A stretch of DNA of 15,997 nt, taken from the NCBI GenBank assembly GCA_965368115.1, contig CBDULQ010000066.1, positions 1 to 15,997 of the forward strand. Direction: 5' to 3'. A program made the translations under genes and the position numbers. This document shows, in pieces, positions 1 through 14,694 of this stretch. The stretch is from an uncultured Gammaproteobacteria bacterium. Lineage in GTDB: Bacteria > Pseudomonadota > Gammaproteobacteria > SZUA-229. Under the pieces are notes generated by a model. That model worked only from the letters and a program-made list of their open reading frames with translations, was not told where the DNA came from and ran no database searches. Numbering within the stretch: the stretch's first letter is position 1; the number at the start of each line of letters is the position of its first letter.

Positions 1-31
1 ACATTTATGTTGTTTCGCAAAGAAACCGCGC

Positions 32-101
32 GCGGATATAGCTTAGTGGAAAAGCGCTACCTTCACAGGTTGAGATGTGAGTTCGATTCTCGCTATCCGT
101 T
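32..101 (+). tRNA. tRNA-like element (Val-CAC-like), probably degenerate/pseudo-tRNA; no CCA
   Basis: Acceptor GCGGATA/TATCCGT (one G-U). D-arm GCTT-AGTGGAA-AAGC. T-arm GTGAG-TTCGATT-CTCGC. The anticodon region is one nt short: the best fold is a 5-bp stem (one mismatch) closing a 6-nt loop TTCACA, or a 4-bp ACCT/AGGT stem with a TCAC tetraloop. CAC sits at the anticodon position. Confidence 0.4.
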
Positions 102-200
102 TTGAATTTTAGCGACCAGTGTCGCTGTAGTTGTTGAACAGAGCCTGTAACAGAGTGCTGTGTGCGCTCAATGGTCTTATATCGACAACGTCAATATTGC

Positions 201-275
201 TGGGGCATGCGCCATCGGTAGGCGGGAGTACTGTTAATGCTCTGTATGAAAGTTCGAGTCTTTCTGCCCCAGCCA
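201..275 (+). tRNA. tRNA-Asn(GTT), CCA encoded
   Basis: Acceptor TGGGGCA/TGCCCCA (U1-A72, as in E. coli tRNA-Asn). D-arm CGCC-ATCGGTA-GGCG. Anticodon arm GAGTA-CTGTTAA-TGCTC (anticodon GTT). Variable loop TGTAT. T-arm GAAAG-TTCGAGT-CTTTC. Discriminator G, then CCA. Confidence 0.7.
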
Positions 276-292
276 GATAAATTTGGTATTTC

Positions 293-368
293 GCTTCGGT
301 AGCTCAGCCGGTAGAGCGCCTGTCTGAAGAGCAGGGCGTCGGTGGATCGAAACCACCCCGAAGCGCCA
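293..368 (+). tRNA. tRNA-Phe(GAA), CCA encoded
   Basis: Acceptor GCTTCGG/CCGAAGC. D-arm GCTC-AGCCGGTA-GAGC. Anticodon arm CCTGT-CTGAAGA-GCAGG (anticodon GAA). Variable loop GCGTC. T-arm GGTGG-ATCGAAA-CCACC; position 54 is A, which is unusual. Discriminator G (E. coli Phe has A73), then CCA. Confidence 0.7.
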
Positions 369-369
369 T

Positions 370-444
370 GACGAGAAGGTTGCTGGTAACCAGGCGGGTA
401 TTACAAACCTGTTGGCGCAAGTTCGATTCTTGCTCTCGTCACCA
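370..444 (+). tRNA. tRNA-Val(TAC), CCA encoded, non-canonical D-arm
   Basis: Starts 1 nt after the CCA of tRNA-Phe. Acceptor GACGAGA/TCTCGTC. Anticodon arm CGGGT-ATTACAA-ACCTG (one G-U; anticodon TAC). Variable loop TTGGC. T-arm GCAAG-TTCGATT-CTTGC is perfect. Discriminator A, then CCA. The D region GTTGCTGGTAACCAGG folds only as CTGG/CCAG around a 3-nt loop, which is aberrant. Confidence 0.6.
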
Positions 445-492
445 GATATCGGGCCGATGATGCTGGTTTAAAAATCGTCGGTCCTTGTACAG

Positions 493-568
493 GGCCCTGT
501 AACTCAATGGGTAGAGTGGCTGATTGTCTATCAGCAGGTTGCGTGTTCGAGTCACGTCAGGGCCGCCA
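493..568 (+). tRNA. tRNA-Asp(GTC), CCA encoded
   Basis: Acceptor GGCCCTG/CAGGGCC. D-arm ACTC-AATGGGTA-GAGT. Anticodon arm GCTGA-TTGTCTA-TCAGC (anticodon GTC). Variable loop AGGTT. T-arm GCGTG-TTCGAGT-CACGT. Discriminator G, then CCA. The listed ORF 507..716 is spurious and overlaps this gene. Confidence 0.75.
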
Positions 569-599
569 GTTAAGAATCGGAAGCTTGATTCCGAGATAT

Positions 600-673
600 G
601 GTGAAGTTAGTTCAATGGTAGAACTCCTGATTGTGGCTCAGGCGATGCGAGTTCGATTCTCGCCTTCACCCCA
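600..673 (+). tRNA. tRNA-His(GTG); no encoded G-1; 3' end C-CA, so the CCA call is ambiguous
   Basis: Acceptor GGTGAAG/CTTCACC is perfect. D-stem GTTC/GAAC with loop AATGGTA. Anticodon arm CCTGA-TTGTGGC-TCAGG (anticodon GTG). Variable loop CGAT. T-arm GCGAG-TTCGATT-CTCGC. Discriminator C, as expected for His. The upstream base is T, so the bacterial G-1:C73 extra pair is not encoded. Three nt (TTA) separate the acceptor and D stems. Confidence 0.6.
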
Positions 674-701
674 GGTTTGTGTGTATTCACAGAGAAAATA
701 T

Positions 702-784
702 GGGTCGTTCGTCTAATGGTATGACACCGGACTTTTACTCCGGCGCGAATCGCATTGAGAGTTCGAGTCTCTCACGACCCACCA
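702..784 (+). tRNA. tRNA-Lys(TTT)-like with a 13-nt type-II-like variable arm, CCA encoded
   Basis: Acceptor GGGTCGT/ACGACCC is perfect and identical to E. coli tRNA-Lys. D-stem GTC/GAC. Anticodon arm CCGGA-CTTTTAC-TCCGG (anticodon TTT). The variable region CGCGAATCGCATT folds as a GCG-AAT-CGC mini-hairpin. T-arm GAGAG-TTCGAGT-CTCTC. Discriminator A, then CCA. Total length 83 nt. Confidence 0.55.
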
Positions 785-897
785 CGAATTGAAGAACTTG
801 CCAGAAGTTTAGCGGTGAGGGTTCTGTATGCCCTGCCTGCGCACTGACGCTATCCATTGCAAAGTGTGTACAAAACACTGGAAAAGCTTCAATACCA

Positions 898-975
898 GCG
901 AAGCTAGCTCAATTGGGTAGAGCAACTGACTTTTAATCAGTGTGTTACAGGTTCGAATCCTGTTCTTCTCAACCA
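898..975 (+). tRNA. tRNA-Lys(TTT)-like, body very similar to E. coli tRNA-Lys but acceptor stem imperfect; possibly a pseudo or variant tRNA
   Basis: D-arm GCTC-AATTGGGTA-GAGC. Anticodon arm ACTGA-CTTTTAA-TCAGT (anticodon TTT). Variable loop GTGTT. T-arm ACAGG-TTCGAAT-CCTGT. Acceptor 5' GCGAAGC pairs with 3' TCTTCTC at only 5 of 7 positions. The 3' end reads A-ACCA, one extra nt before CCA. Confidence 0.45.
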
Positions 976-1398
976 ACCTGTTACGTTGGCTAAGGTAAAG
1001 GCGAAAGCCTGCGGTTCGACTCCGCTTAAATGAGTGTCGAAAGACACAGACGACGACCAGGCCTCCGGTGAAGCCGGCGCCGCTTTGCGGCTCGGCTGCT
1101 CACAACGTGTATAGGGCCTGTGCAGTCGGCTTGGATGTGCAGTGCAGTTTGTCTGTAACGCCGTGTTGAAAAGGAAATTTTTCAAGGATGAAATCTCGGC
1201 TACACGGGCAGATGAATATGTACGTCACCCCGGCTGTCCGCCCCTTATGCGTGAGGTCGTCGCGTTTATATTCAAAGATTCTCAATTAAACCTGAAGGAG
1301 GTCTCATGAAGATTCGTTAACAGCCGGTAGTAGCATCCCTGTGAATGGGGACCGGCCAGGAAATGCTGCGTACTATTTATTAATCAAGGAGAATAATC

Positions 1399-2544
1399 AT
1401 GTTTGGAATTAAGCGTATTGTCATTGCACAACACGAACGCGCACTTTACCTGAAGAACCGTACTATCGAAAAGGTTCTGGAGCCGGGCGTGTACTGGATG
1501 TTTGACCTGTTCGGTCGGATCGATATTCAGGTTTATGATATTAATCAGCCGGAATTTAATCACCCTAACCAGGAAATGATTGTCAAAGAATACAGGGATC
1601 TTTGCGATCATCATTTTCAGGTCGCAGAACTCGGTGATCACGAGGTTGGTTACCTTTATGTCGATAACAAGCTGACTAACGTACTGTTTCCGGCTACTCG
1701 TCATCTGTACTGGAAAGGTCCTTACGATATTCGAATCGAAACTCAGAATATCGAGCGGGACTACCAGGTCGAGGCGGATAAAATGGCGCTTCTGGCCTAC
1801 AAGCGGCTAGCTACCCTGGGCAACCATGTTGTCGAAGCCGTGCTGCCGGTCGAAGTTGCTGCACAGCACATCGGTCTTCTGTTTATCGATGGTGAACTGG
1901 TGAAAACCCTGAAACCGGGTCTTTATGTGTTCTGGAAGTTCAATCGAAAGGTTGCTGTGGAATATGTTGATACCCGGCTGCAGGCGATGGAGGTTTCCGG
2001 TCAGGAGATCCTGACTCGAGACAAGGTAAGCCTGCGGGTTAATCTATCAGCATCTTACAAGATCGTCGATCCGGTAACTGCACGAACTGCACTCGTCAAT
2101 ATGACTGAGTACCTGTACCGGGAAGTACAGTTCGCAATTCGTGAGGCCATTGGCACTCGTCTACTGGACGAACTACTGGCTAATAAAGGTGAGCTGGATC
2201 AGGTGATTTTCGATTCAGTTAAAAGCAAAGCGAAAGACAACGGTATTCATGTACAAGGCGTGGGAATCAAGGACATTATCCTGCCGGGTGACATGAAGGA
2301 CATTATGAACCAGGTGGTTCAAGCCGAAAAAGCTGCGCAAGCTAATGTCATTAAACGTCGCGAAGAAACCGCTGCGACTCGTTCACTGCTGAACACTGCA
2401 CGACTGATGGATGAAAATCCGACTCTGCTGCGACTGAAAGAGCTGGAGGCTCTTGAAAAAGTCACCGAAAAAATCGATAAGCTGACTGTGTTCGGCGGAC
2501 TCGATGGTGTGCTTAAGGAAGTCGTAAAAGTCAGCATGAACTAG
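1399..2544 (+). CDS. SPFH/band-7 (slipin/prohibitin-like) domain protein, 381 aa, no N-terminal TM segment
   Basis: Strong SD AAGGAG 7 nt before the ATG. A typical SPFH core is present (…QEILTRDKVSLRVNLSASYKIVDP…VQFAIREAIG…). The C-terminal half is a coiled coil (QAEKAAQANVIKRREETAATRSLL…). The N-terminal ~190 aa contains a partial internal repeat. GC content is lower than in the rest of the window. Confidence 0.85.
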   Translation: MFGIKRIVIAQHERALYLKNRTIEKVLEPGVYWMFDLFGRIDIQVYDINQPEFNHPNQEMIVKEYRDLCDHHFQVAELGDHEVGYLYVDNKLTNVLFPATRHLYWKGPYDIRIETQNIERDYQVEADKMALLAYKRLATLGNHVVEAVLPVEVAAQHIGLLFIDGELVKTLKPGLYVFWKFNRKVAVEYVDTRLQAMEVSGQEILTRDKVSLRVNLSASYKIVDPVTARTALVNMTEYLYREVQFAIREAIGTRLLDELLANKGELDQVIFDSVKSKAKDNGIHVQGVGIKDIILPGDMKDIMNQVVQAEKAAQANVIKRREETAATRSLLNTARLMDENPTLLRLKELEALEKVTEKIDKLTVFGGLDGVLKEVVKVSMN

Positions 2545-2706
2545 CGTTTTGGGTTCAGACTGAGACTCCGGGCCAGGGAAGGTTCGGGGGCTGTCGGCTT
2601 GATTTAAAAGGACCAGAGCAGGAGGTGATGCGCTGGACTTAGTAACAGGCAAATATCTTTTCCATTGAGTGGGCCTGCCAAATGGGCGGGTTCATATTCA
2701 TATCAA

Positions 2707-2783
2707 ACCCACGTGGCCCAACTGGCAGAGGCGCTCGGCTTAGACCCGAGATGATGAAAGTTCGAACCTTTCCGTGGGTACCA
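2707..2783 (+). tRNA. tRNA-Leu(TAG) with a short (5-nt) variable loop, class-I-like architecture, CCA encoded
   Basis: Acceptor ACCCACG/CGTGGGT. D-stem GCC/GGC with an 11-nt loop. Anticodon arm CTCGG-CTTAGAC-CCGAG is perfect (anticodon TAG). The variable loop ATGAT is only 5 nt, whereas bacterial tRNA-Leu normally has a long arm. T-arm GAAAG-TTCGAAC-CTTTC. Discriminator A (a Leu identity element), then CCA. Confidence 0.6.
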
Positions 2784-2789
2784 GATTTT

Positions 2790-2864
2790 TCGCTGGTGGT
2801 GTAACAGGTAACACTCCGGACTTTGACTTCGGCATTGATAGTTCGAATCTATCCCGGCGAGCCA
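2790..2864 (+). tRNA. tRNA-Gln(TTG), CCA encoded
   Basis: Acceptor TCGCTGG/CCGGCGA, with U1-A72 as in E. coli tRNA-Gln. D-arm GTGT-AACAGGTA-ACAC. Anticodon arm CCGGA-CTTTGAC-TTCGG (anticodon TTG). Variable loop CATT. T-arm GATAG-TTCGAAT-CTATC. Discriminator G, then CCA. It lies 6 nt after tRNA-Leu. Confidence 0.7.
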
Positions 2865-2918
2865 ATTTCTGTATGCAATGTATATCCAGACCTTATTCAT
2901 CAACACAGGACAGGAGAG

Positions 2919-3482
2919 ATGGGATATACCATGCAACATATTCTCGCCGTCGATATCGGCGGCAGGCCTTTTGACTGGCTGCACTGGCAACACGTAGTAC
3001 AGCTATATGCACGGGATGAGATCGCCTGGGAAACCGGCACCGCGCTGTACCGTATTCGAGGCGGTCTCAATCGTCGAACCCGACAATGTAGTGAAATAGA
3101 GCTGACGTCCGTTGTATCGGTTCGAGGTGCAAATACCGCTGCTGTCTATCAGGGGCAGCCGTCGCTAAGTAATCGCACGCTATTTGCCAGGGACGATTAC
3201 CTGTGTATGTATTGTGGTCGTCGGTTGTCCATGTCGCAGCTAACTCGGGATCATATTATGCCGAGGGCGCAGGGTGGTCGTGATGACTGGGAAAATGTTA
3301 CTACCGCATGTAAGTCCTGTAATAATCGCAAGGGTAACAGGACCCCGGAGCAGGCAGGTATGCCGTTGCTGGCGGTACCTTATGTGCCGAATCATGCGGA
3401 ATTTCTGATGCTCGCCAATCGCCGTATTCTGGCGGATCAGATGGTATTCCTGCGTCAATATGTACCCAGGACTCGCCGTTAA
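2919..3482 (+). CDS. HNH endonuclease (small HNH nuclease, ~188 aa)
   Basis: The HNH motif reads CMYCGRR…DHIMPRAQGG…WENVTTACKSCNNRKGN (C-x2-C … H … N … C-x2-C … N). SD AGGAGA precedes the ATG at 2919. The listed ORF start at 2823 would overlap tRNA-Gln and is unlikely. A rho-independent terminator follows. Confidence 0.8.
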   Translation: MGYTMQHILAVDIGGRPFDWLHWQHVVQLYARDEIAWETGTALYRIRGGLNRRTRQCSEIELTSVVSVRGANTAAVYQGQPSLSNRTLFARDDYLCMYCGRRLSMSQLTRDHIMPRAQGGRDDWENVTTACKSCNNRKGNRTPEQAGMPLLAVPYVPNHAEFLMLANRRILADQMVFLRQYVPRTRR

Positions 3483-3485
3483 ATA

Positions 3486-3524
3486 GAACAAACCCGTTTC
3501 GTCCGGAAGCGGGTTTGTTCTTTT
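3486..3524 (+). terminator. rho-independent terminator after the HNH gene
   Basis: The stem GAACAAACCCG … CGGGTTTGTTC is perfect over 11 bp and is followed by TTTT. Confidence 0.75.
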
Positions 3525-3626
3525 CAGTCCTGTACCAATACCGCTCACTGTGCTTGCTCTCGATGTTTACACTGCCGGACTAAGGGCTCCGTCATCAGGC
3601 TTAACTGAGGAGGCTGGCAATAAGGG

Positions 3627-3642
3627 TATAACATGTTATAAT
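3627..3642 (+). promoter_or_regulatory. perfect 14-bp palindrome TATAACATGTTATA overlapping a TATAAT -10 box; candidate operator plus promoter of the TSUP gene
   Basis: The palindrome spans 3627-3640 and TATAAT spans 3637-3642. A weak -35-like TGGCAA lies 16 nt upstream. The ACATGT core is shared with the motifs at 10779-10797 and 5303-5311. Confidence 0.5.
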
Positions 3643-3695
3643 AAGTTAATTTTTTGCGGTATGAATATGGTAAATATTCTTTAAAACAATAAGTT

Positions 3696-4442
3696 ATGGA
3701 ATATATCTCAAGTATTATTGATACTCGGTGGGCACTTGCAGCGGTTGCCGTTCTGCTCGCCGGGGTGGTGCGTGGCTTTTCCGGTTTTGGTGCCGGGCTG
3801 ATTCTGGTGCCGACCCTGGGCGTGCTCTACGGCCCGGTCGAAGCGGTGGTATCGGTGATGTTACTGGAGCTGATTCCCACTGCTCAGATGTTGCCGCGCG
3901 CACTCAAACACTGTCACTGGCCCAGTGCTGCGCCCATGTTATTGATGGCGACGCTGACCATTCCGTTGGGTTCGTTTGTGCTCGTCGTGATGGATGAACA
4001 TCTGGTACGCGGCCTCATTGCCGTGGTGGTGTTGCTGGGTTGTGCCTGGCTGGCCAGTGGCAGGCGTCTCGTGTCTGCTACGGTATCGACCCGATCCGGT
4101 CCACTGCTGACCGGAGGACTCAGCGGTCTGTTGAGCGGGGCGGTTGGACTGGGCGGTTTGCCGGTGGTGATGTATTACCTGTCCGGTACGCATCGAGCCC
4201 AGGCGACGCGTTCGAGCATCATTGTGATATTGCTGGCCAGTGTGCTGGTGTCTTTGATCACGTTTCTCCTGCATGGCATCGTCAGTGAACAGATTGTCAT
4301 GCGTTGTCTCACCCTGGCGCCGTTATTGCTCTTTGCAACCTGGCTGGGTGGTTGTATATTCGGCAGAGTATCGGAGCAGTTGTTCCGTCGGCTGTTACTC
4401 ATTCTGTTGAGTATGGTCGGTCTGGTCACGCTGGCGATCTGA
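3696..4442 (+). CDS. TSUP family permease (TauE/SafE-like sulfite/organosulfonate exporter family, DUF81)
   Basis: The 248-aa polytopic membrane protein has the duplicated Gly-rich TSUP pattern: (AGVVRGFSGFGAGLILVP…) and (LLTGGLSGLLSGAVGLGGLPVVMYYL…). Confidence 0.8.
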   Translation: MEYISSIIDTRWALAAVAVLLAGVVRGFSGFGAGLILVPTLGVLYGPVEAVVSVMLLELIPTAQMLPRALKHCHWPSAAPMLLMATLTIPLGSFVLVVMDEHLVRGLIAVVVLLGCAWLASGRRLVSATVSTRSGPLLTGGLSGLLSGAVGLGGLPVVMYYLSGTHRAQATRSSIIVILLASVLVSLITFLLHGIVSEQIVMRCLTLAPLLLFATWLGGCIFGRVSEQLFRRLLLILLSMVGLVTLAI

Positions 4443-4489
4443 TGTAAATCCTGTGTTCGAACCATTCTATGCAGAAGGGGAATAACCAT

Positions 4490-4927
4490 ATGGAACTGCG
4501 CGCGTTGATTCAACAGGCCGAAGATATTCGTCAGCAACGTCACGCGCTGGCGCAACAGGATTTACAGCTCAGGCAACAACTGGAACACATCGAAGCGGAG
4601 ATTAAAAAGCTCGCCGATACCGATGAGCTGAATTACGAGAACCTCTCGGAACAGGAATTTCAGTTGTTGCTGTCGGAACTGGGCGACGATAAGCGCATCA
4701 AGATCGAAGTGGTGTACGCCGAGCCGAAACGCCAGATCATCAACGAAGTTCAGGTGCCCGACGGTGCGACCATCGAAGACGGTATCGTGCTTTCCGGTAT
4801 TCTCGACGAGCTACCGCATATTGAATTAACCGAAACCCGGGTGGGTATCTTCGGTGCCATCAAGCCCCTGGCGGAAGTTTTGCGTGACGGCGACCGCGTC
4901 GAAATCTATCGACCGGTTAACAGTTAG
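4490..4927 (+). CDS. rnfH: RnfH-family (UPF0125, RatB/YfjF-like) beta-grasp protein with a ~65-aa coiled-coil N-terminal extension
   Basis: The C-terminal ~85 aa (KIEVVYAEPKRQIINEVQVPDGATIEDGIVLSGILDEL…VGIFGAIKPLAEVLRDGDRVEIYRPV) closely resemble E. coli RatB/RnfH (VEVAYALPEKQY…EGATVEEAI…VGIY…DGDRVEIYRPL). SD GAAGGGG lies 9 nt before the ATG at 4490. An in-frame ATG at 4469 is an alternative start. Confidence 0.7.
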   Translation: MELRALIQQAEDIRQQRHALAQQDLQLRQQLEHIEAEIKKLADTDELNYENLSEQEFQLLLSELGDDKRIKIEVVYAEPKRQIINEVQVPDGATIEDGIVLSGILDELPHIELTETRVGIFGAIKPLAEVLRDGDRVEIYRPVNS

Positions 4928-5365
4928 TCTTTTAATCAGTTTTTTCTTTCTGCTGCAGCGCGGGCAAGCTCGCGCCTGTTCATCTTTTTCTATTCCTTCC
5001 TGTCTGCTTCGCGACGGAAAAAACTGTTTTGATATTAATTCCTTAGCGATGTTTTTCTGCATTCCTGCCTAGCACGACCAGTACTTGTATTAAGACTTTC
5101 AGACAGTGACGCACCAGTATGCGTTATTGAAGTGCCCCGTATCCTTGCATCGCACCATTATCGTTCGTGCTGCCTGTTAATTCAGACTTTCGTGATATTT
5201 CTCAATGCAAGCCGTTTTTCGTTTAAAAACATTAACCTGTCTCTTGATGCGGGTAATTGTTTATGCCTTGGCACAGGCTGTGCAACAGTATTACCAGTCA
5301 ATATGACATGTTGTAACAAGTTAACTCATCAAAACGGGCTGACATAAAAACGCGAGGAAATGGTT

Positions 5366-6739
5366 ATGAAGAAACGAATTGTCGCATTGCTAACACTGAT
5401 GGTGTCCTGCTCGGGGGTATCCGCCGAGACCATCCGTATTGCAATCGGTCATCAGAGTAAGTGCACCGACACCTACACCGCAGGCATTATTGTTAAAGAA
5501 CTCAAATTGATCGACAAGTACCTCCCCAGAACCGGTAAATACAAAGACGCTGAATACGAATACAACTGGAAAGACTACGCGTCCGGTTCGCCGATCACCA
5601 ATCAGATGATGGCCAACAAGCTCGACTTCGGTGTTATGGGTGATTACCCGCTGATCGTCAATGGCGCCAAGTTCCAGGAAACCAATAGCCTCGAGTCACT
5701 TTACATCGCCGGTACCGGTTACAACGTGAAAGGTTCAGGTAACGCCATCGTGGTGCCGGTCAAATCCGATGTATTCGAACTGGAAGACCTGAAAGGCAAA
5801 ACCATTTCCGTGCCGGTTGGTAGTGCTGCCTGGGGTATGACCCTGAAAGCGCTTCAGGACAAAGGCATTCGTGAACATGTCGAAATCAAGAACCAGAGTC
5901 CTTCGGTGGGTGCCGCCAATATTGCGCAGGGTAAGATCGACGCGCACGGTGACTTCTGTCCCTGGTCCGAAATCATGGAATTCCGCGGTACCGGCCGCAA
6001 GATCTTCGACGGTAGTGAAGCCGGCGTACCTTACCTGCACGGTGTAGTCGTGCGTAAGGACTATGCGGAGAAATATCCCGAAGTGGTCATCGCTTTCATG
6101 AAAGCGATTGTTGAAGCCGGTGACTGGGTACGCAAGGACCCGGTGATGGCTGCAACCAAACTGGAAGAGTGGACCGGTGTAGAGCGCGAAGTACAGTACC
6201 TGTATTTCAGCAAGGGTGGCGCATTGACGCTTGACCCGACTATCAAAGATGCCTGGGTCGATGCACTGAAATTCGATCACACGGTGCTGGTGAAAGAAAA
6301 AGCCATTCCGCCGCTGGATTTCAATGCCTGGATTACCGACAAGTACATCCGCCAGGCCTATAGCGAAATGAAACGTGATTACGAAGCGGATCTGACCTAC
6401 ACCCGGGACCCCAAGGCAGAAAACATGAAGCTGCCGCCGGCTGAAGTCTGGCATGCGGACAAGGGTATTATCAGCTACGACAGTGTTGCCGCCATGTTGG
6501 ATGATGCCGCCAAATTCAAGAAAGACGGCAAGCTGCGTGCATCCTATGTTTTCGATAACACCACCGGCCTGAAGATCTTCGCCAAGATTGCCTTCTACGT
6601 GAAAGATAAAGAGGGTAAATATGTGGCCTTCATGCGCAAGCCGGATGCCAGCGAGTTCGCTACGACATCCGGCGGCCAGCTGGTCGACAAAATCGAAACA
6701 TCAACAGGTGAATTCCTGCAACTGAGTTCCCTCAACTGA
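5366..6739 (+). CDS. ABC transporter periplasmic substrate-binding protein, NitT/TauT (NMT1/SsuA/TauA/NrtA-like) family, signal peptide
   Basis: The signal peptide MKKRIVALLTLMVSCSGVSA-E is present. The ~458-aa length recalls the NrtA/CmpA-sized members. The gene precedes a cognate permease and a NitT/TauT-type ATPase. A GAGG motif lies 9 nt before the ATG at 5366; the in-frame ATG at 5360 is too close to the SD. Confidence 0.8.
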   Translation: MKKRIVALLTLMVSCSGVSAETIRIAIGHQSKCTDTYTAGIIVKELKLIDKYLPRTGKYKDAEYEYNWKDYASGSPITNQMMANKLDFGVMGDYPLIVNGAKFQETNSLESLYIAGTGYNVKGSGNAIVVPVKSDVFELEDLKGKTISVPVGSAAWGMTLKALQDKGIREHVEIKNQSPSVGAANIAQGKIDAHGDFCPWSEIMEFRGTGRKIFDGSEAGVPYLHGVVVRKDYAEKYPEVVIAFMKAIVEAGDWVRKDPVMAATKLEEWTGVEREVQYLYFSKGGALTLDPTIKDAWVDALKFDHTVLVKEKAIPPLDFNAWITDKYIRQAYSEMKRDYEADLTYTRDPKAENMKLPPAEVWHADKGIISYDSVAAMLDDAAKFKKDGKLRASYVFDNTTGLKIFAKIAFYVKDKEGKYVAFMRKPDASEFATTSGGQLVDKIETSTGEFLQLSSLN

Positions 6740-6759
6740 TTGATGAGCTTCATTGGGTT

Positions 6760-6780
6760 CCGGCGGTTAGCCGCCGCCGG
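6760..6780 (+). other. GC-rich intercistronic hairpin between the SBP and permease genes
   Basis: CCGGCGG-ttagccg-CCGCCGG forms a 7-bp G/C stem with no clear U-tract. A role as an attenuator or mRNA-stability element setting SBP:permease stoichiometry is conceivable. Confidence 0.4.
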
Positions 6781-6812
6781 TTCTCCAATGATTTTTCCAG
6801 CCGGGTAGAGCA

Positions 6813-7775
6813 ATGACATTGGAAAGCGCAAAACTAATTAAACAGGATGACCTGGATACGCCGGAGACGAATCCGGACGCCGCCAGCGACACGCAGGCGA
6901 CGGCACAGGTCAAGCCGATCAAGCAAGCGGATGCTGATTCCGCCACCGCGGAAACAGCCGTTATGAATACAAGACCTGCGGCCAGCACCGGTCGGCCCGC
7001 AAAAAAAGTGCCCTGGGATCGCTATGCGATTCGCGTTGCGGCGGTCATCGTGGCCGTTTTGCTCTGGCAGCTTGCATCGTCCACAGGGTTTAACTTTGTG
7101 ATCAATTTCGAGAACATTCCATCGCCACAAAAAGTGGGTGCACAGTTCGTTCACCTGCTGGGCACGGAAGAGTTCTATACCCACATCGTTGTCAGCCTTA
7201 AACGCATACTGATCGCTTTCACCATGGCCTCGGTGCTGGGTGTTATCGCCGGTATATTCATGGGGCGCTCACGTCTGGTCTATGACGTGCTCATGCCCTA
7301 TATCGAAATTTTACGACCGATCCCGGCCGTGGCCTGGATTCCGCTGTCCATTCTGATGTTGCCGACGGAAGAATCGAGCATCATCTACATCACTTTCCTC
7401 GGCGCTTTGTTCCCAGTGATTCTGAATACCATCCATGGCGTCGAGCAAACACCGGAAACGCTGGTAAGGGCGGCGCGTTCACTGGGAGCGAATAATCGCG
7501 CCATCATGTGGCATGTGATTCTGCCCGGCGCCTTGCCCAGCATCATGGCGGGTCTGGCGATTGGCATGGGTGTGTCCTGGTTCTCGCTGCTGGCCGGCGA
7601 GATCATCAGCGGTCAGTACGGTATCGGTTACTTCACCTGGAACTCCTACACACTCGTGGAATACCCGAACATCATTATCGGCATGCTGACAATCGGTGGC
7701 CTGGGTACCTTGTCTACCTGGCTTGTAAAGCAGGCGTCCAAGCCGGCACTTCGCTGGCAGAGTTCGGAGCATTGA
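6813..7775 (+). CDS. ABC transporter permease (BPD_transp_1; SsuC/TauC/NrtB-like)
   Basis: The conserved permease loop LGANNRAIMWHVILPGALPSIMAGLAIGMGVSWFSLLAGE is present, with six or more hydrophobic helices. A ~90-aa low-complexity hydrophilic N-terminus may mean the real start is later, for example the ATG near 6962. Confidence 0.8.
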   Translation: MTLESAKLIKQDDLDTPETNPDAASDTQATAQVKPIKQADADSATAETAVMNTRPAASTGRPAKKVPWDRYAIRVAAVIVAVLLWQLASSTGFNFVINFENIPSPQKVGAQFVHLLGTEEFYTHIVVSLKRILIAFTMASVLGVIAGIFMGRSRLVYDVLMPYIEILRPIPAVAWIPLSILMLPTEESSIIYITFLGALFPVILNTIHGVEQTPETLVRAARSLGANNRAIMWHVILPGALPSIMAGLAIGMGVSWFSLLAGEIISGQYGIGYFTWNSYTLVEYPNIIIGMLTIGGLGTLSTWLVKQASKPALRWQSSEH

Positions 7776-7776
7776 T

Positions 7777-8430
7777 ATGTACGCAAGAATACTGATCAAC
7801 GAAATTCGCCAGCACTGGATCATGTTTCTCGGCATCAGTATCGGCTTTGTGGTGATGTACTACGGCAGCCTGTTGCTACTCACCATGCTGCGTTTCGGCG
7901 AGATTCCGAACTATGTGGAGTTCTATGACATTTTCAAAATCTATGCCGGCATTTTCGAAGGTACGCCGTCGCTCAGCGATGCACTGATGATCCTGAAAGA
8001 CGAAGCCTGGATCGAAACCGGTTATAAAAATCCGGATTACTACGGCGTTGCGACCTGGAGCTACATGCTGATTCCACCGAAGATGTTGCTGGTGTTATTG
8101 CTTGGTATGTTGCTCGGCGTGTTCAGTATCCTGGTGACTTCGAAACGCAAGGCTTGTGCACGAGGTGTGGATAAAAAAATGGTCGCTGCTGCAGGTGTGG
8201 GTTCTTCACTGGTCTGCCTGACCAGTGCGACCCTGACCTGGGTGGTGTGTTGTGCGACGCCGTCCTGGGTGGTGGCCCTGGCCATGCTCGGTATGAACGC
8301 CTCACTGGCCCTGTTCCTGGAACCGCTGGGGCAGGTGATGATGTTGCTGGGGCTGGGCATTATGTTTGCCATCATCATTGTGCAACTGCGCCAGATGGCT
8401 GCCTATAAAACACACGAGCATCATTCCTGA
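7777..8430 (+). CDS. uncharacterised polytopic membrane protein (217 aa) inserted between the permease and ATPase genes
   Basis: The start is translationally coupled: permease TGA at 7773-7775, ATG at 7777. Several hydrophobic segments and a Cys cluster (…SSLVCLTSATLTWVVCCATPSWVV…) are present. I recognise no family. Confidence 0.55.
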   Translation: MYARILINEIRQHWIMFLGISIGFVVMYYGSLLLLTMLRFGEIPNYVEFYDIFKIYAGIFEGTPSLSDALMILKDEAWIETGYKNPDYYGVATWSYMLIPPKMLLVLLLGMLLGVFSILVTSKRKACARGVDKKMVAAAGVGSSLVCLTSATLTWVVCCATPSWVVALAMLGMNASLALFLEPLGQVMMLLGLGIMFAIIIVQLRQMAAYKTHEHHS

Positions 8431-8462
8431 AATTAGACTGATAACAGACGAGAGATAGACGC

Positions 8463-9329
8463 GTGCTGAATGTAAAAGAAGACATCGATCATCAGGCCGA
8501 CATGCCGCCGCTGGGTGCGCCCCGTATGCAACAGCATAAACCCTCCCAGGGACGTATCGTCATCGACGACGTTTCGGTGAGGTTTCCCGGCGGTGCGGTT
8601 GCGGTCGAGGGCGCCTGCCTGACCGTGGAGCCAGGTGAATTCATCTGCCTGCTGGGTCCTTCCGGTTGCGGAAAATCGACCCTGATGAATACCGTTGCCG
8701 GTTTCGTTCAACCCACTAGCGGTCGGGTTAGTGTCGACGACAGGGTCATCGAAAAACCCGGCTTCGATCGCGGCATGGTATTCCAGCATCATTCGTTGTT
8801 TCCCTGGAAAACCGTTCGCGACAATATTGCGTTCGGACCGCTGATGGCGAACAAGGGCAAAAACGAAGCGATTAGTATCGCGCGAACCATGCTTGGTATG
8901 GTCGGGCTGAGTGCGTATGAAAATCGTTACCCGGGTGTGCTGTCCGGTGGAATGAAACAGCGTGTGGGTATTGCACGTGCACTGGCCAACTATCCCAATG
9001 TATTGCTGATGGACGAACCCTTCGGTGCACTGGATGCGCAGACTCGCACCATGATGCAGGAGAATCTGCTGCAGATCTGGGGCGAATTCGGTATCAGTGT
9101 GATTTTTGTAACCCACGACATCGATGAAGCCGTATTTCTTGCCGATCGTGTGGTGGTGATGAGTGCTAGCCCCGGCCGGCTGATTGCGGATATCAAGGTC
9201 GATCTGCCACGACCGCGTGAACCGGACATGGTGACGTCGGATGTATATATCCAGACCAAGCGCCAGTGTCTGGACCTGATTCGAGAAGAATCCTTACGCG
9301 CCTTCGAACAACAGGGTGACAAGGGTTAA
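8463..9329 (+). CDS. ABC transporter ATP-binding protein, NitT/TauT family (SsuB/TauB/NrtD-like)
   Basis: Walker A GPSGCGKST, signature LSGGMKQRVGIARAL, Walker B LLMDEPFGALD and H-loop VTHDIDEA are all present. The start is uncertain: GTG at 8463 has a GAGAGA SD, and in-frame ATGs follow at about 8500 and 8527. Confidence 0.85.
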   Translation: MLNVKEDIDHQADMPPLGAPRMQQHKPSQGRIVIDDVSVRFPGGAVAVEGACLTVEPGEFICLLGPSGCGKSTLMNTVAGFVQPTSGRVSVDDRVIEKPGFDRGMVFQHHSLFPWKTVRDNIAFGPLMANKGKNEAISIARTMLGMVGLSAYENRYPGVLSGGMKQRVGIARALANYPNVLLMDEPFGALDAQTRTMMQENLLQIWGEFGISVIFVTHDIDEAVFLADRVVVMSASPGRLIADIKVDLPRPREPDMVTSDVYIQTKRQCLDLIREESLRAFEQQGDKG

Positions 9330-9338
9330 ACGAAAAGT

Positions 9339-9989
9339 ATGAACATGAACGTATTGTATGACCACACAATCGGCCGGAGTGCGGCGATCCTTGCGATCGT
9401 CGCCGTGCTGATCCTCGGTTGCAGTACGCAAACTGAAAGCGACATGCCGGAATCGATTCGCGATGTTGCTCTGGAAACACCGATCGCTCTGGCAGATGTG
9501 AAACTGCTGGATGATCAACAACAGCCGGTGACGCTGGAAAATTTTACCGGTCACTGGACCCTGGTGACCTTCGGTTACACCCATTGCCCGGATATCTGTC
9601 CGGCGACTCTGTCGCAGATCGGCATGCTGTACAAGCTGGTGCAACAGGATGGTGTAAAGGATCTACCCAGGGTGTATTTCGTCAGTGTCGATCCGCAGCG
9701 CGATGCTCTGGAATACCTGGGTGAATACACCCGTTATTTCAACACAGCGTTCATCGGTATCAGTGGTGACCAGCAGGCGTTGAAAAATTTCGAAGACCAG
9801 TTTGGTGTGTTTCATCGATATGAGAAACAGTCGGGCTCGGAAAATTATCTGGTGGATCACAGTGCGGATATTTTCCTCGTCGATCCACAGGCGCGTATCG
9901 TGGCGAGCTTTCAGCCGCCGATGAATTTACGTCAGGTTGCCGATCTGTATGCGGGGTTTGTTGATTATTATGCCGGGAAACAGAGTTGA
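9339..9989 (+). CDS. Sco1/SenC family copper chaperone / thiol-disulfide oxidoreductase, lipoprotein
   Basis: Lipobox LILGC-S. The Sco CxxxC motif reads HCPDICP, downstream His, thioredoxin-like fold signature (…YFVSVDPQRD…). Confidence 0.85.
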   Translation: MNMNVLYDHTIGRSAAILAIVAVLILGCSTQTESDMPESIRDVALETPIALADVKLLDDQQQPVTLENFTGHWTLVTFGYTHCPDICPATLSQIGMLYKLVQQDGVKDLPRVYFVSVDPQRDALEYLGEYTRYFNTAFIGISGDQQALKNFEDQFGVFHRYEKQSGSENYLVDHSADIFLVDPQARIVASFQPPMNLRQVADLYAGFVDYYAGKQS

Positions 9990-10734
9990 TGAACTTGTTG
10001 ATCGCGATACTTTGTCAGCGACACGCCACTGGTTGTGGCGAGGTGGTCTGCTGTGGGGTGCATTCATCATGATGAACAGTATCGAACTGCGTGCCGACAC
10101 CATCGACAACAGCGGCCAGGAGCCTTATGAGCAATGCGGTTACTGCCACGAATACGACGGTAATACGGTGATGGCAGATTTTCCGCGCCTGGCGGGACAG
10201 TGGCCGGCGTATCTGCGAAAACAGTTACATGATTTCAGGGCGAAGCGTCGCATCAGTTCGCATATGAACCCGACCGCAGAACTGCTCAGTGACGAAGACA
10301 TCGAGTCGGTTGTGGCTTATTTCAACAGCCAGCTGCCGCGTGCAAAACAGTTACCGGCGCAGAACGAAAACGATGCGCAGCATGCCCGGCGCCTGTTTAC
10401 CCATGGTGATACACAACGCGGTTTGCCGGCCTGTATCGAATGCCATGGCGACCAGGGTCAGGGCAGGGCGCAACCGCTGGCACCGAACATTGCCGGTCAA
10501 CAACCGGATTATCTGCAACGCCAGCTGAACAACTTCCGCGCCGGCGAACGTAGTAACGACCCAAACGCTCGCATGCGTCAGGTTGCGGCGCTGTTGACGG
10601 ATCACGAGATCGTCATTCTGAAGGATTTTCTGGCGCGTATGCAGCCGGTGAAAGCGCCTGCGCAAACCGTATCCGGCGCGGCTGAATCGAATCTTAATTT
10701 AACCCGAAACACAACGGCGCAGACAAAACATTAA
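9937..10734 (+). CDS. di-haem cytochrome c4-family protein
   Basis: Two CxxCH haem-binding sites (CGYCHE, CIECHG), each followed by the c4-type motif (LAGQ…YL.KQL.DFR / IAGQQPDYLQRQLNNFRAGER). The ORF overlaps the sco gene by 53 nt in another frame. The true start may be an internal ATG at 9970 or a TTG near 10009, either of which would yield a signal peptide (…GGLLWGAFIMMNSIELRA-DT). Confidence 0.75.
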   Translation: MPICMRGLLIIMPGNRVDELVDRDTLSATRHWLWRGGLLWGAFIMMNSIELRADTIDNSGQEPYEQCGYCHEYDGNTVMADFPRLAGQWPAYLRKQLHDFRAKRRISSHMNPTAELLSDEDIESVVAYFNSQLPRAKQLPAQNENDAQHARRLFTHGDTQRGLPACIECHGDQGQGRAQPLAPNIAGQQPDYLQRQLNNFRAGERSNDPNARMRQVAALLTDHEIVILKDFLARMQPVKAPAQTVSGAAESNLNLTRNTTAQTKH

Positions 10735-10774
10735 GTCTGCATAAACAATAACTTGTACTGATCAGGTGAAGCCC

Positions 10775-10797
10775 TATAATGACATGTCATAACATGT
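10775..10797 (+). promoter_or_regulatory. gntR promoter -10 (TATAAT) overlapping the palindrome ATGACATGTCAT and a second ACATGT repeat; candidate autoregulatory operator
   Basis: TATAAT spans 10775-10780 with a -35-like TTGTAC 16 nt upstream. A perfect 12-bp palindrome spans 10779-10790, followed by AACATGT at 10791-10797. GntR/HutC operators are typically palindromes built around GT…AC. Confidence 0.5.
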
Positions 10798-10814
10798 AGA
10801 TACAGGTACCGATT

Positions 10815-11567
10815 ATGAGCACAGATCGTAAACAGTTTTCACCTCTCAGTAATGGTTCGTTACAGCCCCTGTATATCCAGATCAAGGAGGCGATCAAACA
10901 GCGCATCCTTGATGGGGATTACGCCGCCCACGAACGCCTGCCGTCGGAATCGGAGCTGATGAAAGTGTTCGGTGTCAGCCGCATCACCGTACGCCAGGCG
11001 TTAAGGGATCTGCATAGCGACGGCATGGTGTTCAGCGTGCAGGGAAAGGGCACTTTCGTATCCAAACCGAAAGCAGTGCAGGACGTGCAACGGCTGCAGG
11101 GTTTCGGTGAGGCGATGGCGCCGAAAGGTTATGAAACATCGGCGCGAGTGATCAGCGTAAGTGAAACCCGGGCCAGCCAGGAAGTGGCGGAAGCGCTGGA
11201 TATCACGCGCAACGTCAAGGTCGTCGAACTGAAACGGGTGCGTTTTCTGAATCGCGAACCCATTTCCATCGACCACAGTTTCTTCCCGCTGGACATCGGT
11301 CAGAAACTGCAGGCCCGCGACCTGACACAGGATGTCTTTCCGCTACTGGAAAACGAATTCGGCGTTCTGCTGAGTCATGCGGATTTGCAGATCGAAGCGA
11401 CCGCGGCCAGTGAAGAACAGGCGAGTTTTCTCAACATCGACGTCAATCGGCCGGTGTTGAAGATCAAACGCCTGGTGTTCAACCAGCAGGGTAAGCCGGT
11501 GGACTTCGAATATCTGTTTTATCGCGGTGATGCTTTCCAGTATCACCTGCGCGTAGACAGAAAATAG
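10815..11567 (+). CDS. GntR-family transcriptional regulator, HutC/FarR subfamily (HTH_GntR + UTRA domain)
   Basis: The N-terminus (…LPSESELMKVFGVSRITVRQALRDLHSDGMVFSVQGKGTFV) is a classic GntR winged-helix domain. The C-terminal ~150 aa are UTRA-like. Confidence 0.85.
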   Translation: MSTDRKQFSPLSNGSLQPLYIQIKEAIKQRILDGDYAAHERLPSESELMKVFGVSRITVRQALRDLHSDGMVFSVQGKGTFVSKPKAVQDVQRLQGFGEAMAPKGYETSARVISVSETRASQEVAEALDITRNVKVVELKRVRFLNREPISIDHSFFPLDIGQKLQARDLTQDVFPLLENEFGVLLSHADLQIEATAASEEQASFLNIDVNRPVLKIKRLVFNQQGKPVDFEYLFYRGDAFQYHLRVDRK

Positions 11568-11713
11568 CGACACTCAGGGCTCGATGTGTCGTTGCAGCGT
11601 AATCGTTCGTCAGAATTACAGTACGCACGATTGCATAACAGGGATGTGAATATTGTTCTGTCCGAGGATTCGGGCAGAGACATCAGGATCACGACTCAAA
11701 ATAGGTGAAAACA

Positions 11714-13459
11714 ATGGCACACGAGAAAATTACCGACGAAATCCTGGAGTGCGATGTACTGGTCATCGGTGGTGGTACCGCAGGACCCATGGCCGCCGTC
11801 AAGGCCAAGCAAAGCAATCCCGATCTCAACGTGGTGGTGCTGGAAAAGGCCAACGTCAAACGTAGCGGCGCAATCAGTATGGGTATGGACGGCCTCAACA
11901 ATGCGGTGATTCCCGGTCACGCCACCCCCGAACAATACGTCAAGGAAATCACTGTCGCCAACGACGGTATCGTCAACCAGAAAACCGTCATGGCCTACGC
12001 ACAGAAAAGCTTCGACATGATCAAGCAGCTGGACGAATGGGGCATCAAGTTCGAGAAAGACGAAACCGGCGATTATAACGTCAAGAAAGTCCATCACATG
12101 GGCACTTATGTACTGCCCATGCCGGAAGGTCATCACATGAAGAAGGTGCTGTATCGTCAGTTACGTCGGCATCGAGTCAGCGTGGTGAACCGTTTCATGG
12201 CCACGCGCTTGTTCAAGGACAGTGAAGGTAAAATTTGCGGCGCGTTCCTGCTCAATCCGCGCACCGGAGAAACGGCCGTGATTCGTGCCAAGACGGTGAT
12301 TCTGTGTACCGGTGCTGCCGGTCGCCTGGGTCTGCCGTCTTCCGGTTACCTGTTCGGTACCTATGAAAATCCCACCAACGCCGGTGACGGTTACAGCCTG
12401 GCCTATCATGCGGGTGCCGAGCTGAGCGGCCTGGAATGTTATCAGATCAATCCCCTGATCAAGGACTACAACGGTCCGGCCTGTGCTTATGTGACCGGGC
12501 CCATGGGTGGATATACCGCTAACGCCCAGGGTAATCGTTTCATCGAATGCGACTACTGGAGCGGGCAGATGATGATGGAATTCTACAAGGAACTGGAAGG
12601 CGGTAAGGGGCCGGTGTTTCTGAAACTGGATCACCTGGCCGAGGAAACCGTCGAGGAAATCGAAGAGATTCTGCATACCAACGAGCGTCCCAGTCGTGGT
12701 CGTTTCCACGAACGGCGCGGCACCAACTATCGGGAAAAAATGGTCGAGATGCACATTTCCGAAATCGGTTTCTGCAGCGGTCACAGTGCTTCCGGTGTGT
12801 GGGTTGATGAAAACGCACGCACCACCGTACCCGGTTTGTATGCTGCAGGCGACCTGGGTAGTGTGCCGCACAACTATATGCTGGGCGCTTTCGTGTATGG
12901 CGAACTGGCCGGAGTCGATGCGGCCAGTTACTGTGCTGAACACGCGCTGGGCGAAATCGATCCGGAGGAAGTGGAAAAAGAAAAGCAGCGCGTACTCGCG
13001 CCTTTACAAAGGGAAGACGGTATTCCGCCCGCGCAGATGGAATACAAGCTGCGCCGCATGGTGAACGATTATCTGCAACCGCCCAAAGTGACGCGCAAGA
13101 TGGAAATCGGTCTGGACCGTTTCGCGGAGATTCGCCAGGACCTGGACATGCTGTGCGCCAACGATCCCCACGAACTGATGCGCGCCATGGAAGTGCATTT
13201 CATTCTCGATTGTGCGGAGATGGCGGCTCATTCATCGCTGTACCGTACCGAGAGCCGTTGGGGTCTGTATCACTATCGCGTCGACTATCCCCAGGTGGAT
13301 GAAGACAACTGGTTTGTGCATGTGCAGACCATCAAGGGTGAAAACGGTCAGCCGACCTGTTTCAAACGACCCATCGATCCCTATGTCGTCGAGCTGGATG
13401 AAACCGAGAAAGACGCTTATCAAAAACTGCGTGTTGCCAGCAACACGGCCGAAATGTAA
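11714..13459 (+). CDS. FAD flavoprotein of the fumarate-reductase/succinate-dehydrogenase superfamily, closest in motifs to adenylylsulfate (APS) reductase alpha subunit (AprA-like), ~581 aa
   Basis: Dinucleotide-binding motif DVLVIGGGTAGPMAAV. An AprA-type RSGA…G…N motif (KRSGAISMGMDGLNNAV; compare AprA ERSGAVAQGLSAIN). The C-terminal motif ESRWGLYHYRVDYPQVDEDNWFVH matches the AprA/FrdA (ESR…YR.D(Y/F)P…D.NW) signature. SD AGGTGA lies 5 nt before the ATG at 11714; the listed GTG at 11705 is less likely. The protein is shorter than canonical AprA (~640-660 aa). Confidence 0.75.
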   Translation: MAHEKITDEILECDVLVIGGGTAGPMAAVKAKQSNPDLNVVVLEKANVKRSGAISMGMDGLNNAVIPGHATPEQYVKEITVANDGIVNQKTVMAYAQKSFDMIKQLDEWGIKFEKDETGDYNVKKVHHMGTYVLPMPEGHHMKKVLYRQLRRHRVSVVNRFMATRLFKDSEGKICGAFLLNPRTGETAVIRAKTVILCTGAAGRLGLPSSGYLFGTYENPTNAGDGYSLAYHAGAELSGLECYQINPLIKDYNGPACAYVTGPMGGYTANAQGNRFIECDYWSGQMMMEFYKELEGGKGPVFLKLDHLAEETVEEIEEILHTNERPSRGRFHERRGTNYREKMVEMHISEIGFCSGHSASGVWVDENARTTVPGLYAAGDLGSVPHNYMLGAFVYGELAGVDAASYCAEHALGEIDPEEVEKEKQRVLAPLQREDGIPPAQMEYKLRRMVNDYLQPPKVTRKMEIGLDRFAEIRQDLDMLCANDPHELMRAMEVHFILDCAEMAAHSSLYRTESRWGLYHYRVDYPQVDEDNWFVHVQTIKGENGQPTCFKRPIDPYVVELDETEKDAYQKLRVASNTAEM

Positions 13460-13469
13460 GGAGCCTGTT

Positions 13470-13703: not shown

Positions 13704-13719
13704 GCCGGGAGATTTTTAG

Positions 13720-14682: not shown

Positions 14683-14694
14683 GGGGGAGATGTT

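Follow-up and report, generated by a model that had tools for sequence, protein, structure and literature searches.

A probable RNA-damage island joining divergent tRNA genes and a b7a-tRNA/Band-7 module in a gammaproteobacterial contig

The stretch analysed here (contig CBDULQ010000066.1, positions 1 to 15,997; hereafter the window) comes from a metagenomic contig and carries at 32-2864 a cluster of ten tRNA or tRNA-like genes, with a gene for an SPFH/Band-7 protein among them and an HNH endonuclease gene close behind. Our assessment is that 32-3482 is probably a laterally acquired chromosomal RNA-damage island, in which divergent backup tRNAs and the HNH gene stand beside a module made of a b7a-tRNA (Band-7-associated tRNA-like RNA) and a Band-7 protein, without the ligase. 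The array half consists of eight divergent tRNAs, one tRNA-like gene with a 6-nt loop (32-101) and an HNH gene of an array-linked family, and the b7a half of a tRNA-like RNA and the SPFH protein with a conserved structured leader between them. Each component is known in kind; new are their combination, the missing ligase and the unusual but conserved shapes of several tRNAs. This study directly observed the genes and their folds, purifying selection and covariation, the gene linkages and the non-syntenic accessory status. An earlier note on this DNA had described the cluster as an array of non-canonical tRNAs of probable phage or mobile-element origin. That interpretation is partly supported, because the island is accessory and acquired, but it is cellular and tied to RtcB/Band-7 repair, and the note missed the b7a-tRNA/Band-7 module that one of its tRNAs forms with the SPFH gene.

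Architecture and conservation of the tRNA genes

ARAGORN identified exactly ten tRNA or tRNA-like genes, the same ten that the earlier note had listed, all on the plus strand and arranged in two blocks (8 + 2) within 2.8 kb (Table 1). With the Rfam tRNA model (RF00005), nine of them exceeded the gathering threshold and tRNA-Asn was added in a permissive run (53.4 bits). The scores of all ten (36.1-64.3 bits) lie above the curated threshold of 29 and place them in the tRNA family, and a permissive Rfam scan of 1-3000 returned no known family besides tRNA. The spacers between the genes measure 1-113 nt, not the 1-30 nt previously given, and CCA is encoded by most genes, as had been said, the count being 8/10 with 32-101 and 898-971 as the two that lack it.

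Two related loci were compared with the window. L002/L003 is the same locus in another population, with the same ten genes and an SPFH protein 96% identical to that of the window, and L004/L005 is a more distant locus with 77% identity in SPFH and a 15-gene array. Between the window and L002, 19 of 754 positions changed in the tRNA genes compared to 63 of 452 in ordinary spacers (Fisher P = 7e-14), that is, the tRNA genes diverge about 5 times more slowly than the spacers. In L004, orthologs are recognisable for Asp, Leu, Gln, Asn and Lys, with their stems kept via compensatory changes, and both U37 of tRNA-Asp and the short variable loop of tRNA-Leu are present there as well. The slow evolution relative to the spacers and the compensatory stem changes thus indicate that the odd shapes are conserved and are not folding artefacts, artefacts being what the earlier note had named as a finding against its view. 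The ten tRNA and tRNA-like genes are real and under purifying selection.

In eight of the ten genes the acceptor stem is intact, the discriminator base is the correct one and CCA is encoded, and the corresponding Asn, Phe, Val, Asp, His, Lys, Leu and Gln tRNAs, structurally divergent as they are, should by their predicted structures be chargeable. Several conserved loop positions depart from the bacterial norm, namely U37 in Asp, G37 in Phe, C38 in Lys (702-784) and Gln, and A32 in Val. For example, the Asp sequence is identical in L002, and L004 keeps U37 together with a compensatory change in the anticodon stem; U37 is also found in L043 and L044, and a Methylibium plasmid array has C37. G37 in tRNA-Phe is the rule among related arrays, the tRNA-Phe of Escherichia coli having A37 and A73. 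The Asn gene is 98.7% identical to its L002 copy, and its acceptor, anticodon and T stems show compensatory changes relative to L004; the Gln gene is 87% identical to its L004 ortholog. The aberrant D arm reported for tRNA-Val(UAC) is borne out: there is no U8, only 3 nt separate the acceptor and D stems, and the D stem has 3 bp including a U.G pair. In L002 the CCA of this gene is mutated.

The tRNA-His, by contrast to its earlier description as a gene without G-1, does encode this nucleotide in the Rfam register, where G-1 pairs with C670, U8 and A9 are canonical and the loop has G37 and C38; position 66 is missing, leaving U7 unpaired. The ARAGORN register has no CCA and a misplaced U8. Elsewhere, array-borne tRNA-His genes with C33 were seen in L019 (start 11924), L026 (7389) and L040 (8975), with the loops ACGUGGC, ACGUGAA and UCGUGAC. 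U33 is nearly universal in tRNAs, and C33 in these genes departs from that norm.

The 13-nt variable arm of tRNA-Lys at 702-784, also correctly described before, is present in L002 and measures 14 nt in L021, whereas the L004 ortholog has a normal 5-nt loop. Extra arms of 13-14 nt were observed on Asn or Lys tRNAs of other loci, at L066 4993 (84 nt; Asn with a 13-nt arm), L045 15749 (86 nt) and L021 3180 (84 nt; the Lys with the 14-nt arm). Short-arm tRNAs have thus repeatedly gained an extra arm in such arrays.

The tRNA-Leu(UAG) indeed lacks the long variable arm. Its anticodon and T stems show compensatory changes relative to L004, and short-arm Leu genes (77-78 nt) occur also in L019, L021, L026, L081 and L009/Variovorax plasmid, with the L019 gene lying beside four normal long-arm Leu genes. 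According to reviews, the long arm of tRNA-Leu is kept in all organisms except in animal mitochondria. In E. coli, however, this arm is dispensable for leucylation, and A73, A14, A15-U48, G18G19 and A20a, as read from the sequence, make up the full identity set of the E. coli leucyl-tRNA synthetase. Charging of the short-arm Leu is therefore likely.

The first gene of the array (32-101), described by the earlier note as Val-like with a collapsed anticodon loop, does have a 6-nt loop (UUCACA); it also pairs G1 with U72, has U73 and encodes no CCA. The loop in L002 is of the same length (UUCACC), and two of the four changes between the two copies restore pairs: an anticodon-stem U.U mismatch is repaired, and a T-stem G.U becomes G-C. 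No homolog of 32-101 was found in the other loci. A terminator-like hairpin with a U-rich tail lies directly after it at 110-127, and the stretch up to 134 is conserved in L002. Judged from sequence, 32-101 may form a separate transcription unit.

These data bear on the possibility that the cluster is a decaying, non-functional remnant of a longer acquired array and that its odd architectures are pseudogene damage. Such a remnant would fit ten genes compared to 15-25 or more in related loci, the loss of RtcB, the two genes without CCA, the poor D arm of Val and its lost CCA in L002, the missing position 66 of His and the insertion-like variable arm of Lys. But this is in contrast to the conservation of the tRNA genes relative to their spacers, to the L002 changes that restore pairs in 32-101 and the stems compensated relative to L004, and to the fact that U37 Asp, short-arm Leu and long-arm Lys are conserved across lineages. 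We therefore consider decay of the whole array improbable.

The b7a-type RNA, its leader and the SPFH gene

The gene at 898-971 had been taken for a second tRNA-Lys(UUU) with an irregular acceptor stem. The irregularity stands, in the form of two C.U mismatches and the absence of a proper CCA, but the identity does not. The gene aligns with 41 elements located at the same position upstream of SPFH homologs (alignment A3), and the common cloverleaf covaries, with 92.7% of cells paired as opposed to 69.6% in shuffles and with double changes at all five anticodon-stem pairs. The outer acceptor pairs 1, 2 and 3 are unpaired in 29, 15 and 12 of the 42 sequences. Its position relative to the SPFH gene is -501, within the family range of -800 to -200. 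By these sequence comparisons 898-971 is a b7a-type tRNA-like RNA and not a tRNA-Lys. The association of b7a-tRNA with Band-7 proteins and RtcB has been published (Burroughs and Aravind 2016, cited here through a preprint that refers to it), and the RNA is described there as never experimentally validated.

To place the SPFH gene, one genome per species was scanned with the SPFH alignment, yielding 80 loci, mostly from Gammaproteobacteria. ARAGORN found a tRNA-like gene of 68-79 nt on the same strand, 200-800 nt upstream of SPFH (mostly 350-570), in 69 of these loci, and the covariance model alone added one in 7 others, for a total of at least 76/80; among the four loci left without an upstream element, three have no upstream sequence. 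In 45 of the 80 loci RtcB is the gene that immediately follows SPFH, and in most relatives the b7a-tRNA/Band-7 module heads an operon with this ligase. The SPFH protein of the window is 50-65% identical to the products of SPFH genes that precede RtcB. In the window itself, the genes downstream of SPFH are tRNA-Leu, tRNA-Gln, HNH and TauE. The SPFH relatives in Citrobacter and E. coli are in an operon with a nucleotidyltransferase gene, an operon that in Citrobacter is divergent from rtcR, and in Pseudomonas aeruginosa an SPFH gene is located inside the rtc locus. In L004, the region 661-12561 combines 15 tRNAs, two RtcB genes, a PrfH-like release factor, an SF0329 protein, SPFH, HNH and an RlaP nucleotidyltransferase, RlaP being a family that adds nucleotides to the ends of cleaved tRNAs. 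An rve integrase fragment was seen at the end of the L004 contig. No phage relatives of SPFH were found by tblastn or in IMG/VR, and inspection of the protein revealed no hydrophobic segment. Its sequence relationships identify the SPFH protein as a component of cellular RNA-repair loci.

The b7a RNAs vary widely in their 'anticodons', with 24 different triplets among the 59 loci that have 7-nt loops and 14 more loci having 6- or 8-nt loops. Despite this variety, Y32, U33, R37 and A38 are mostly kept. The L004 ortholog has the same body as 898-971 with the anticodon GAU, and near-identical bodies are found with CAU in L018 (9485-9559), GAU in L020 (9477-9551) and L004 (8793-8867), GUU in L022 (9417-9491) and L006 (9440-9515), and UUU in the window. 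Within this closest clade only positions 34 and 35 vary, and 32, 33 and 36-38 read CU..UAA except in L006 (A33). At the sequence level, the pattern looks like anticodon switching and not like free drift of the loop.

Such features raise the possibility that the main task of the island's RNAs is not decoding but a decoy, sponge or sensor function towards toxins that cut tRNAs or towards proteins of repair and regulation. The frayed acceptor stem of b7a, its usual lack of CCA and its 24 'anticodons' agree with this, as does the 6-nt loop of 32-101. In addition, a sponge role has been suggested in the literature for array tRNAs, and RtcR is reported to be activated by damaged tRNA fragments. But eight of the ten genes keep intact acceptor stems, correct discriminators and CCA, and in Anabaena 23 of 26 array tRNAs are aminoacylated in vivo. 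As an account of the island as a whole, we hold this to be quite improbable; the decoy reading can hold for 898-971 and 32-101 without holding for the other genes.

The sequences on both sides of the b7a gene are also conserved. The preceding spacer (785-897) is 97% identical to L002, compared with about 86% for other spacers, and 85% identical to L004 over 72 nt. It contains a palindrome (AGTGT-N7-ACACT, 864-880) and a -10-like TTCAAT (888-893) that ends 5 nt 5' of 898, both also present in L002 and L004; a consensus promoter scan did not flag 785-897. Directly 3' of b7a, the module at 972-1076 is identical to L002 throughout its 105 nt, and covariation of its stems is seen in many SPFH loci. 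It is composed of a 5-bp hairpin with a 7-nt loop (973-989), GGC-GAAA-GCC (1000-1009), a T-arm-like TGCGG-UUCGACU-CCGCU (1010-1026) and a GUGUC-GAAA-GACAC hairpin (1034-1047). Because this conserved, covarying module follows immediately, the functional b7a RNA may be longer than the 74-nt cloverleaf. Closer to the SPFH start, a mini open reading frame with a strong Shine-Dalgarno sequence encodes four codons (MKIR-stop); it is conserved in L002, and L004 has AUG UGA at this site. The stem that follows covaries (CCC/GGG versus CCU/AGG in the L004 comparison), and an internal GUAGCAU of this stem-loop could pair with AUGCUGC just before the SPFH start. From this arrangement, 1306-1378 is a possible translational control or translation-sensing leader.

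The Xanthomonadales (Lysobacterales) have a further 70-nt tRNA-like gene in tandem just 5' of b7a, in L070 (9261-9330), L071 (158-227), L074 (9463-9532), L080 (9486-9555), L094 (9517-9586) and L095 (9458-9527). These elements have a closed loop of GNRA type (C-GCAA-G, C-GAAA-G or C-GCGA-G) where a tRNA has its anticodon loop. The gene at 32-101 was considered as a candidate for this distal element (about 70 nt, C-GNRA-G loop, tandem with b7a) and rejected, as the family covariance model (A4, R2) gave it only 34.9 bits, below ordinary tRNAs.

Origin and proposed role of the island

The earlier note had counted two protein genes embedded in the array. Both genes exist and are recognised by Pfam as SPFH and HNH, but only SPFH is inside, as the HNH gene sits just after the last tRNA and outside the array. 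Full-length relatives of the HNH protein with 36-43% identity are encoded on megaplasmids of Variovorax, Methylibium, Burkholderia and Polaromonas, and more distant ones on an Acaryochloris plasmid (33%) and on mycobacterial plasmids. In Variovorax most of a 42-gene tRNA array precedes the HNH gene, and in Methylibium it comes directly after 27 tRNA genes. The HNH core resembles DNA-cutting HNH domains. Among the 80 SPFH loci, 12 have at least six same-strand tRNA genes near SPFH, and HNH is present in 10 of these 12 compared to 4 of the 68 others (P = 3.6e-8). This co-occurrence shows that the window belongs to a recurrent composite of tRNA array, HNH, b7a-tRNA and SPFH, usually with RtcB.

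The genomic setting was examined by protein search and contig inspection of relatives that share the TauE block downstream of the island. In relatives with this TauE-RnfH-ABC block, either HiPIP/NnrU or an M48 peptidase is found upstream of TauE and no tRNAs occur there; a metagenome scan with TauE for empty sites gave no matches. The GC content at third codon positions (GC3) of SPFH and HNH is 0.51-0.52, compared to 0.59-0.70 in ten flanking genes, and an orthologous tRNA array is located in a different genomic context in L004. The lack of synteny in relatives, the foreign GC3 and the L004 array in another context together argue that the island, by its sequence a chromosomal one, is accessory and was horizontally acquired.

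Conservation of the array in place in related genomes, which the earlier note had named as a finding against its view, is thus absent, and its statement that the cluster is unlike a housekeeping operon agrees with our data. An ordinary housekeeping tRNA operon of the lineage is scarcely credible: all ten genes do pass the Rfam tRNA threshold and CCA is mostly encoded, as in gammaproteobacterial genes, but the unit is absent from the syntenic site in relatives, has foreign GC3 and deviant architectures, is linked to HNH and is patchily distributed over different genomic contexts.

The same note's proposal of a phage or mobile-element origin holds as far as lateral acquisition is concerned, and the HNH gene has relatives on plasmids and in phages. 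The phage part fares less well. The note's main reading would make the cluster a phage-borne array or prophage remnant, acting in counter-defence against host anticodon nucleases. HNH relatives do occur in jumbo phages, namely Salicola SCTP-2 (with the gene inside the tRNA region), Ralstonia RsoM2USA (with no tRNA within 9 kb), Arthrobacter Atuin and Myxococcus Mx1, and phage tRNAs with altered loops have been proposed or shown to evade tRNA-targeting defences. However, neither the window nor the 20 kb of L002 yielded phage structural or replication genes or other phage genes, an integrase or att repeats, and L001 likewise showed no integrase; megablast of the window DNA gave no phage match, and a scan of IMG/VR with HNH returned partial, distant relatives only. 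Together with the lack of phage relatives of SPFH, the metabolic chromosomal genes in the flanks and the place of SPFH/b7a as a cellular RtcB-operon component, this makes a phage origin very unlikely. The sole candidate for an att-like flanking repeat was the 13-mer TATCAAACCC(T/A)CG, found with one mismatch at L001 398-410 (in a terminator upstream of the island) and at 2701-2713 of the window (the 5' end of tRNA-Leu). This match is probably due to chance and does not bracket the island.

Long tRNA arrays (L-arrays), published in 2021 (PMC8421152), offer the closest comparison for the array half. The published cases contain 26-43 genes, and such arrays are accompanied by a conserved HNH gene, with rtcB in the vicinity; translational stress induces them, and most of their tRNAs are aminoacylated. 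The window locus shares with them a dense same-strand cluster of extra tRNAs, lateral spread with a patchy, accessory distribution and a linked HNH gene; likewise, rtcB and other RNA or translation genes nearby are a trait of the neighbourhood, and some members appear non-functional. It differs in having only 10 genes, in two blocks and on a gammaproteobacterial chromosome, thus falling short of L-array length, and in having HNH downstream with an SPFH gene and a tRNA-like RNA embedded. Related loci have 13-34 such genes. For the other half, the known b7a-tRNA/Band-7 RtcB systems likewise have a tRNA-like gene immediately upstream of an SPFH/Band-7 gene in a family that often adjoins RtcB, whereas the module in the window has no RtcB within 16 kb and is surrounded by ordinary-looking tRNA genes and HNH. 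The rsr-yrlBA-rtcBA operon of Salmonella (Ro60 and Y RNAs with a tRNA-like domain) is similar in that an RNA-repair ligase operon includes a non-coding RNA that mimics tRNA and a protein that may serve as scaffold, but it has Ro/TROVE instead of SPFH, another RNA family and no tRNA array. Finally, phage tRNA clusters (T4 with SegB, T5 with its tRNA-Lys against PARIS, and mycobacteriophage cluster C1; PMC10264068, PMC11464382, PMC13096335) resemble the locus in their clustered tRNAs with loop and arm differences, the DNA endonuclease among the tRNA genes and the proposed role of replacing nuclease-destroyed tRNAs. The window locus, in contrast, is not in a phage, and its endonuclease is of the HNH family while SegB is of the GIY-YIG family.

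In the reading that we favour, an RNA-damage island, host tRNAs would be cleaved or depleted by ribotoxins or translational stress, and the island would supply replacements that nucleases may cleave poorly owing to changes in their arms and anticodon loops. SPFH and the tRNA-like RNA would act as cofactor or scaffold, possibly as decoy, in the handling of damaged tRNAs, and DNA cutting by HNH would, in the manner of a homing endonuclease, serve the spread or maintenance of the array. The idea of nuclease evasion is modelled on phage tRNAs. Toxin resistance of the array tRNAs is plausible, and such nuclease-evading replacement is compatible with the conserved deviations (U37 Asp, G37 Phe, Leu without the long arm).

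Several points weigh against this reading. The repair half is incomplete here, as tblastn with two RtcB queries found no RtcB in the 16-kb window, and RtcR was not found in it either. Control of SPFH by sigma-54 and RtcR was considered and rejected, as no consensus with three or fewer mismatches occurs in 873-2224 and the matches in the window are at chance level. The array, at 10 genes, is short compared with the published long arrays, and it may be a decaying remnant in view of the two genes without CCA and the defects of Val (weak D arm, CCA lost in L002) and His (position 66 missing). The match to the targets of anticodon nucleases that the earlier note had pointed out is indistinguishable from chance, the choice of isotypes not being significant with respect to Q-anticodon (colicin E5-type) nuclease targets (P = 0.15 for at least three of the four such isotypes among eight). 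A role of HNH as homing endonuclease is suggested only by analogy with SegB of phage T4.

A more ambitious version of this scheme, which we consider rather unlikely, would make the island a working toxin-proof translation kit. In it, the array tRNAs would be charged, used and nuclease-resistant through their conserved deviations, including the short-arm Leu, and the SPFH-bound b7a RNA would be a bait or sensor whose triplet (CAU, GAU, GUU and UUU on near-identical bodies) diversifies to match the toxins of each lineage.

The locus physically joins two strategies that are mostly discussed apart, tRNA replacement by accessory arrays and tRNA repair by RtcB with Band-7 and tRNA-like cofactors. 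The link between array and repair recurs in at least a dozen gammaproteobacterial lineages, thus suggesting joint action against tRNA-targeting toxins or translational stress. The short-arm tRNA-Leu, the U37 tRNA-Asp, the extra-arm tRNA-Lys and the b7a tRNA-like RNA are defined objects for tests. Provided that the variants prove to be charged and resistant to nucleases, they would reveal how far tRNA shape can drift and still function, and the idea of nuclease-proof tRNAs would extend from phages to cellular islands.

Feature coordinates and flanking genes

Table 1. Features of the island at 32-3482 (positions in the window; scores in bits from the Rfam tRNA model)
Feature	Position	Strand	Remarks
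tRNA-like gene, 70 nt	32-101	+	ARAGORN isotype undefined; 54.8 bits, one loop position deleted
tRNA-Asn(GUU)	201-275	+	Loop CUGUUAA canonical; G73; CCA; 53.4 bits
tRNA-Phe(GAA)	293-368	+	G37; G73; CCA; 59.9 bits
tRNA-Val(UAC)	370-444	+	Deviant D arm; A32; CCA; 36.1 bits
tRNA-Asp(GUC)	493-568	+	Loop UUGUCUA (U37); G73; CCA; 64.3 bits
tRNA-His(GUG)	600-673 (ARAGORN 600-672)	+	Rfam register: G-1 g600, C73 c670, CCA 671-673
tRNA-Lys(UUU)	702-784	+	13-nt variable arm; C38; E. coli-like acceptor stem; A73; CCA; 59.9 bits
Conserved spacer, candidate promoter/operator of the b7a-SPFH unit	785-897	+	Palindrome and -10-like box
b7a-tRNA (Band-7-associated tRNA-like RNA)	898-971	+	ARAGORN label Lys(UUU); frayed acceptor stem; no CCA
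Conserved leader module	972-1076	+	Directly 3' of b7a; partial tRNA-like
Mini open reading frame and structured leader before the SPFH start	1306-1378	+	Shine-Dalgarno; AUG AAG AUU CGU UAA at 1306-1320
SPFH/Band-7 ('slipin') protein, 381 aa	1399-2544	+	Pfam Band_7, E 1.4e-29
tRNA-Leu(UAG)	2707-2783	+	77 nt; 5-nt variable loop; Leu-type D arm; A37; A73; CCA; 56.5 bits
tRNA-Gln(UUG)	2790-2864	+	U1-A72; G73; C38; CCA; 57.4 bits
HNH endonuclease	2919-3482 (187 aa, ATG 2919) or 2931-3482 (183 aa)	+	Pfam HNH_5, HNH (E 1.6e-18); PHROG HNH families

The remainder of the window (3696-15997) has ordinary chromosomal content and higher GC3. It encodes TauE, RnfH, an NMT1-type ABC transporter, SCO1 and a dihaem cytochrome c, as well as a GntR regulator, an FAD flavoprotein with ferredoxins and a HEAT-repeat protein. 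The relatives of the SPFH protein belong to organisms named Candidatus Thiodiazotropha or Sedimenticola, and the sequence data suggest a sulfur-oxidising gammaproteobacterium as the host. A further gene in 3696-15997 is RnfA-like, as judged from its sequence.

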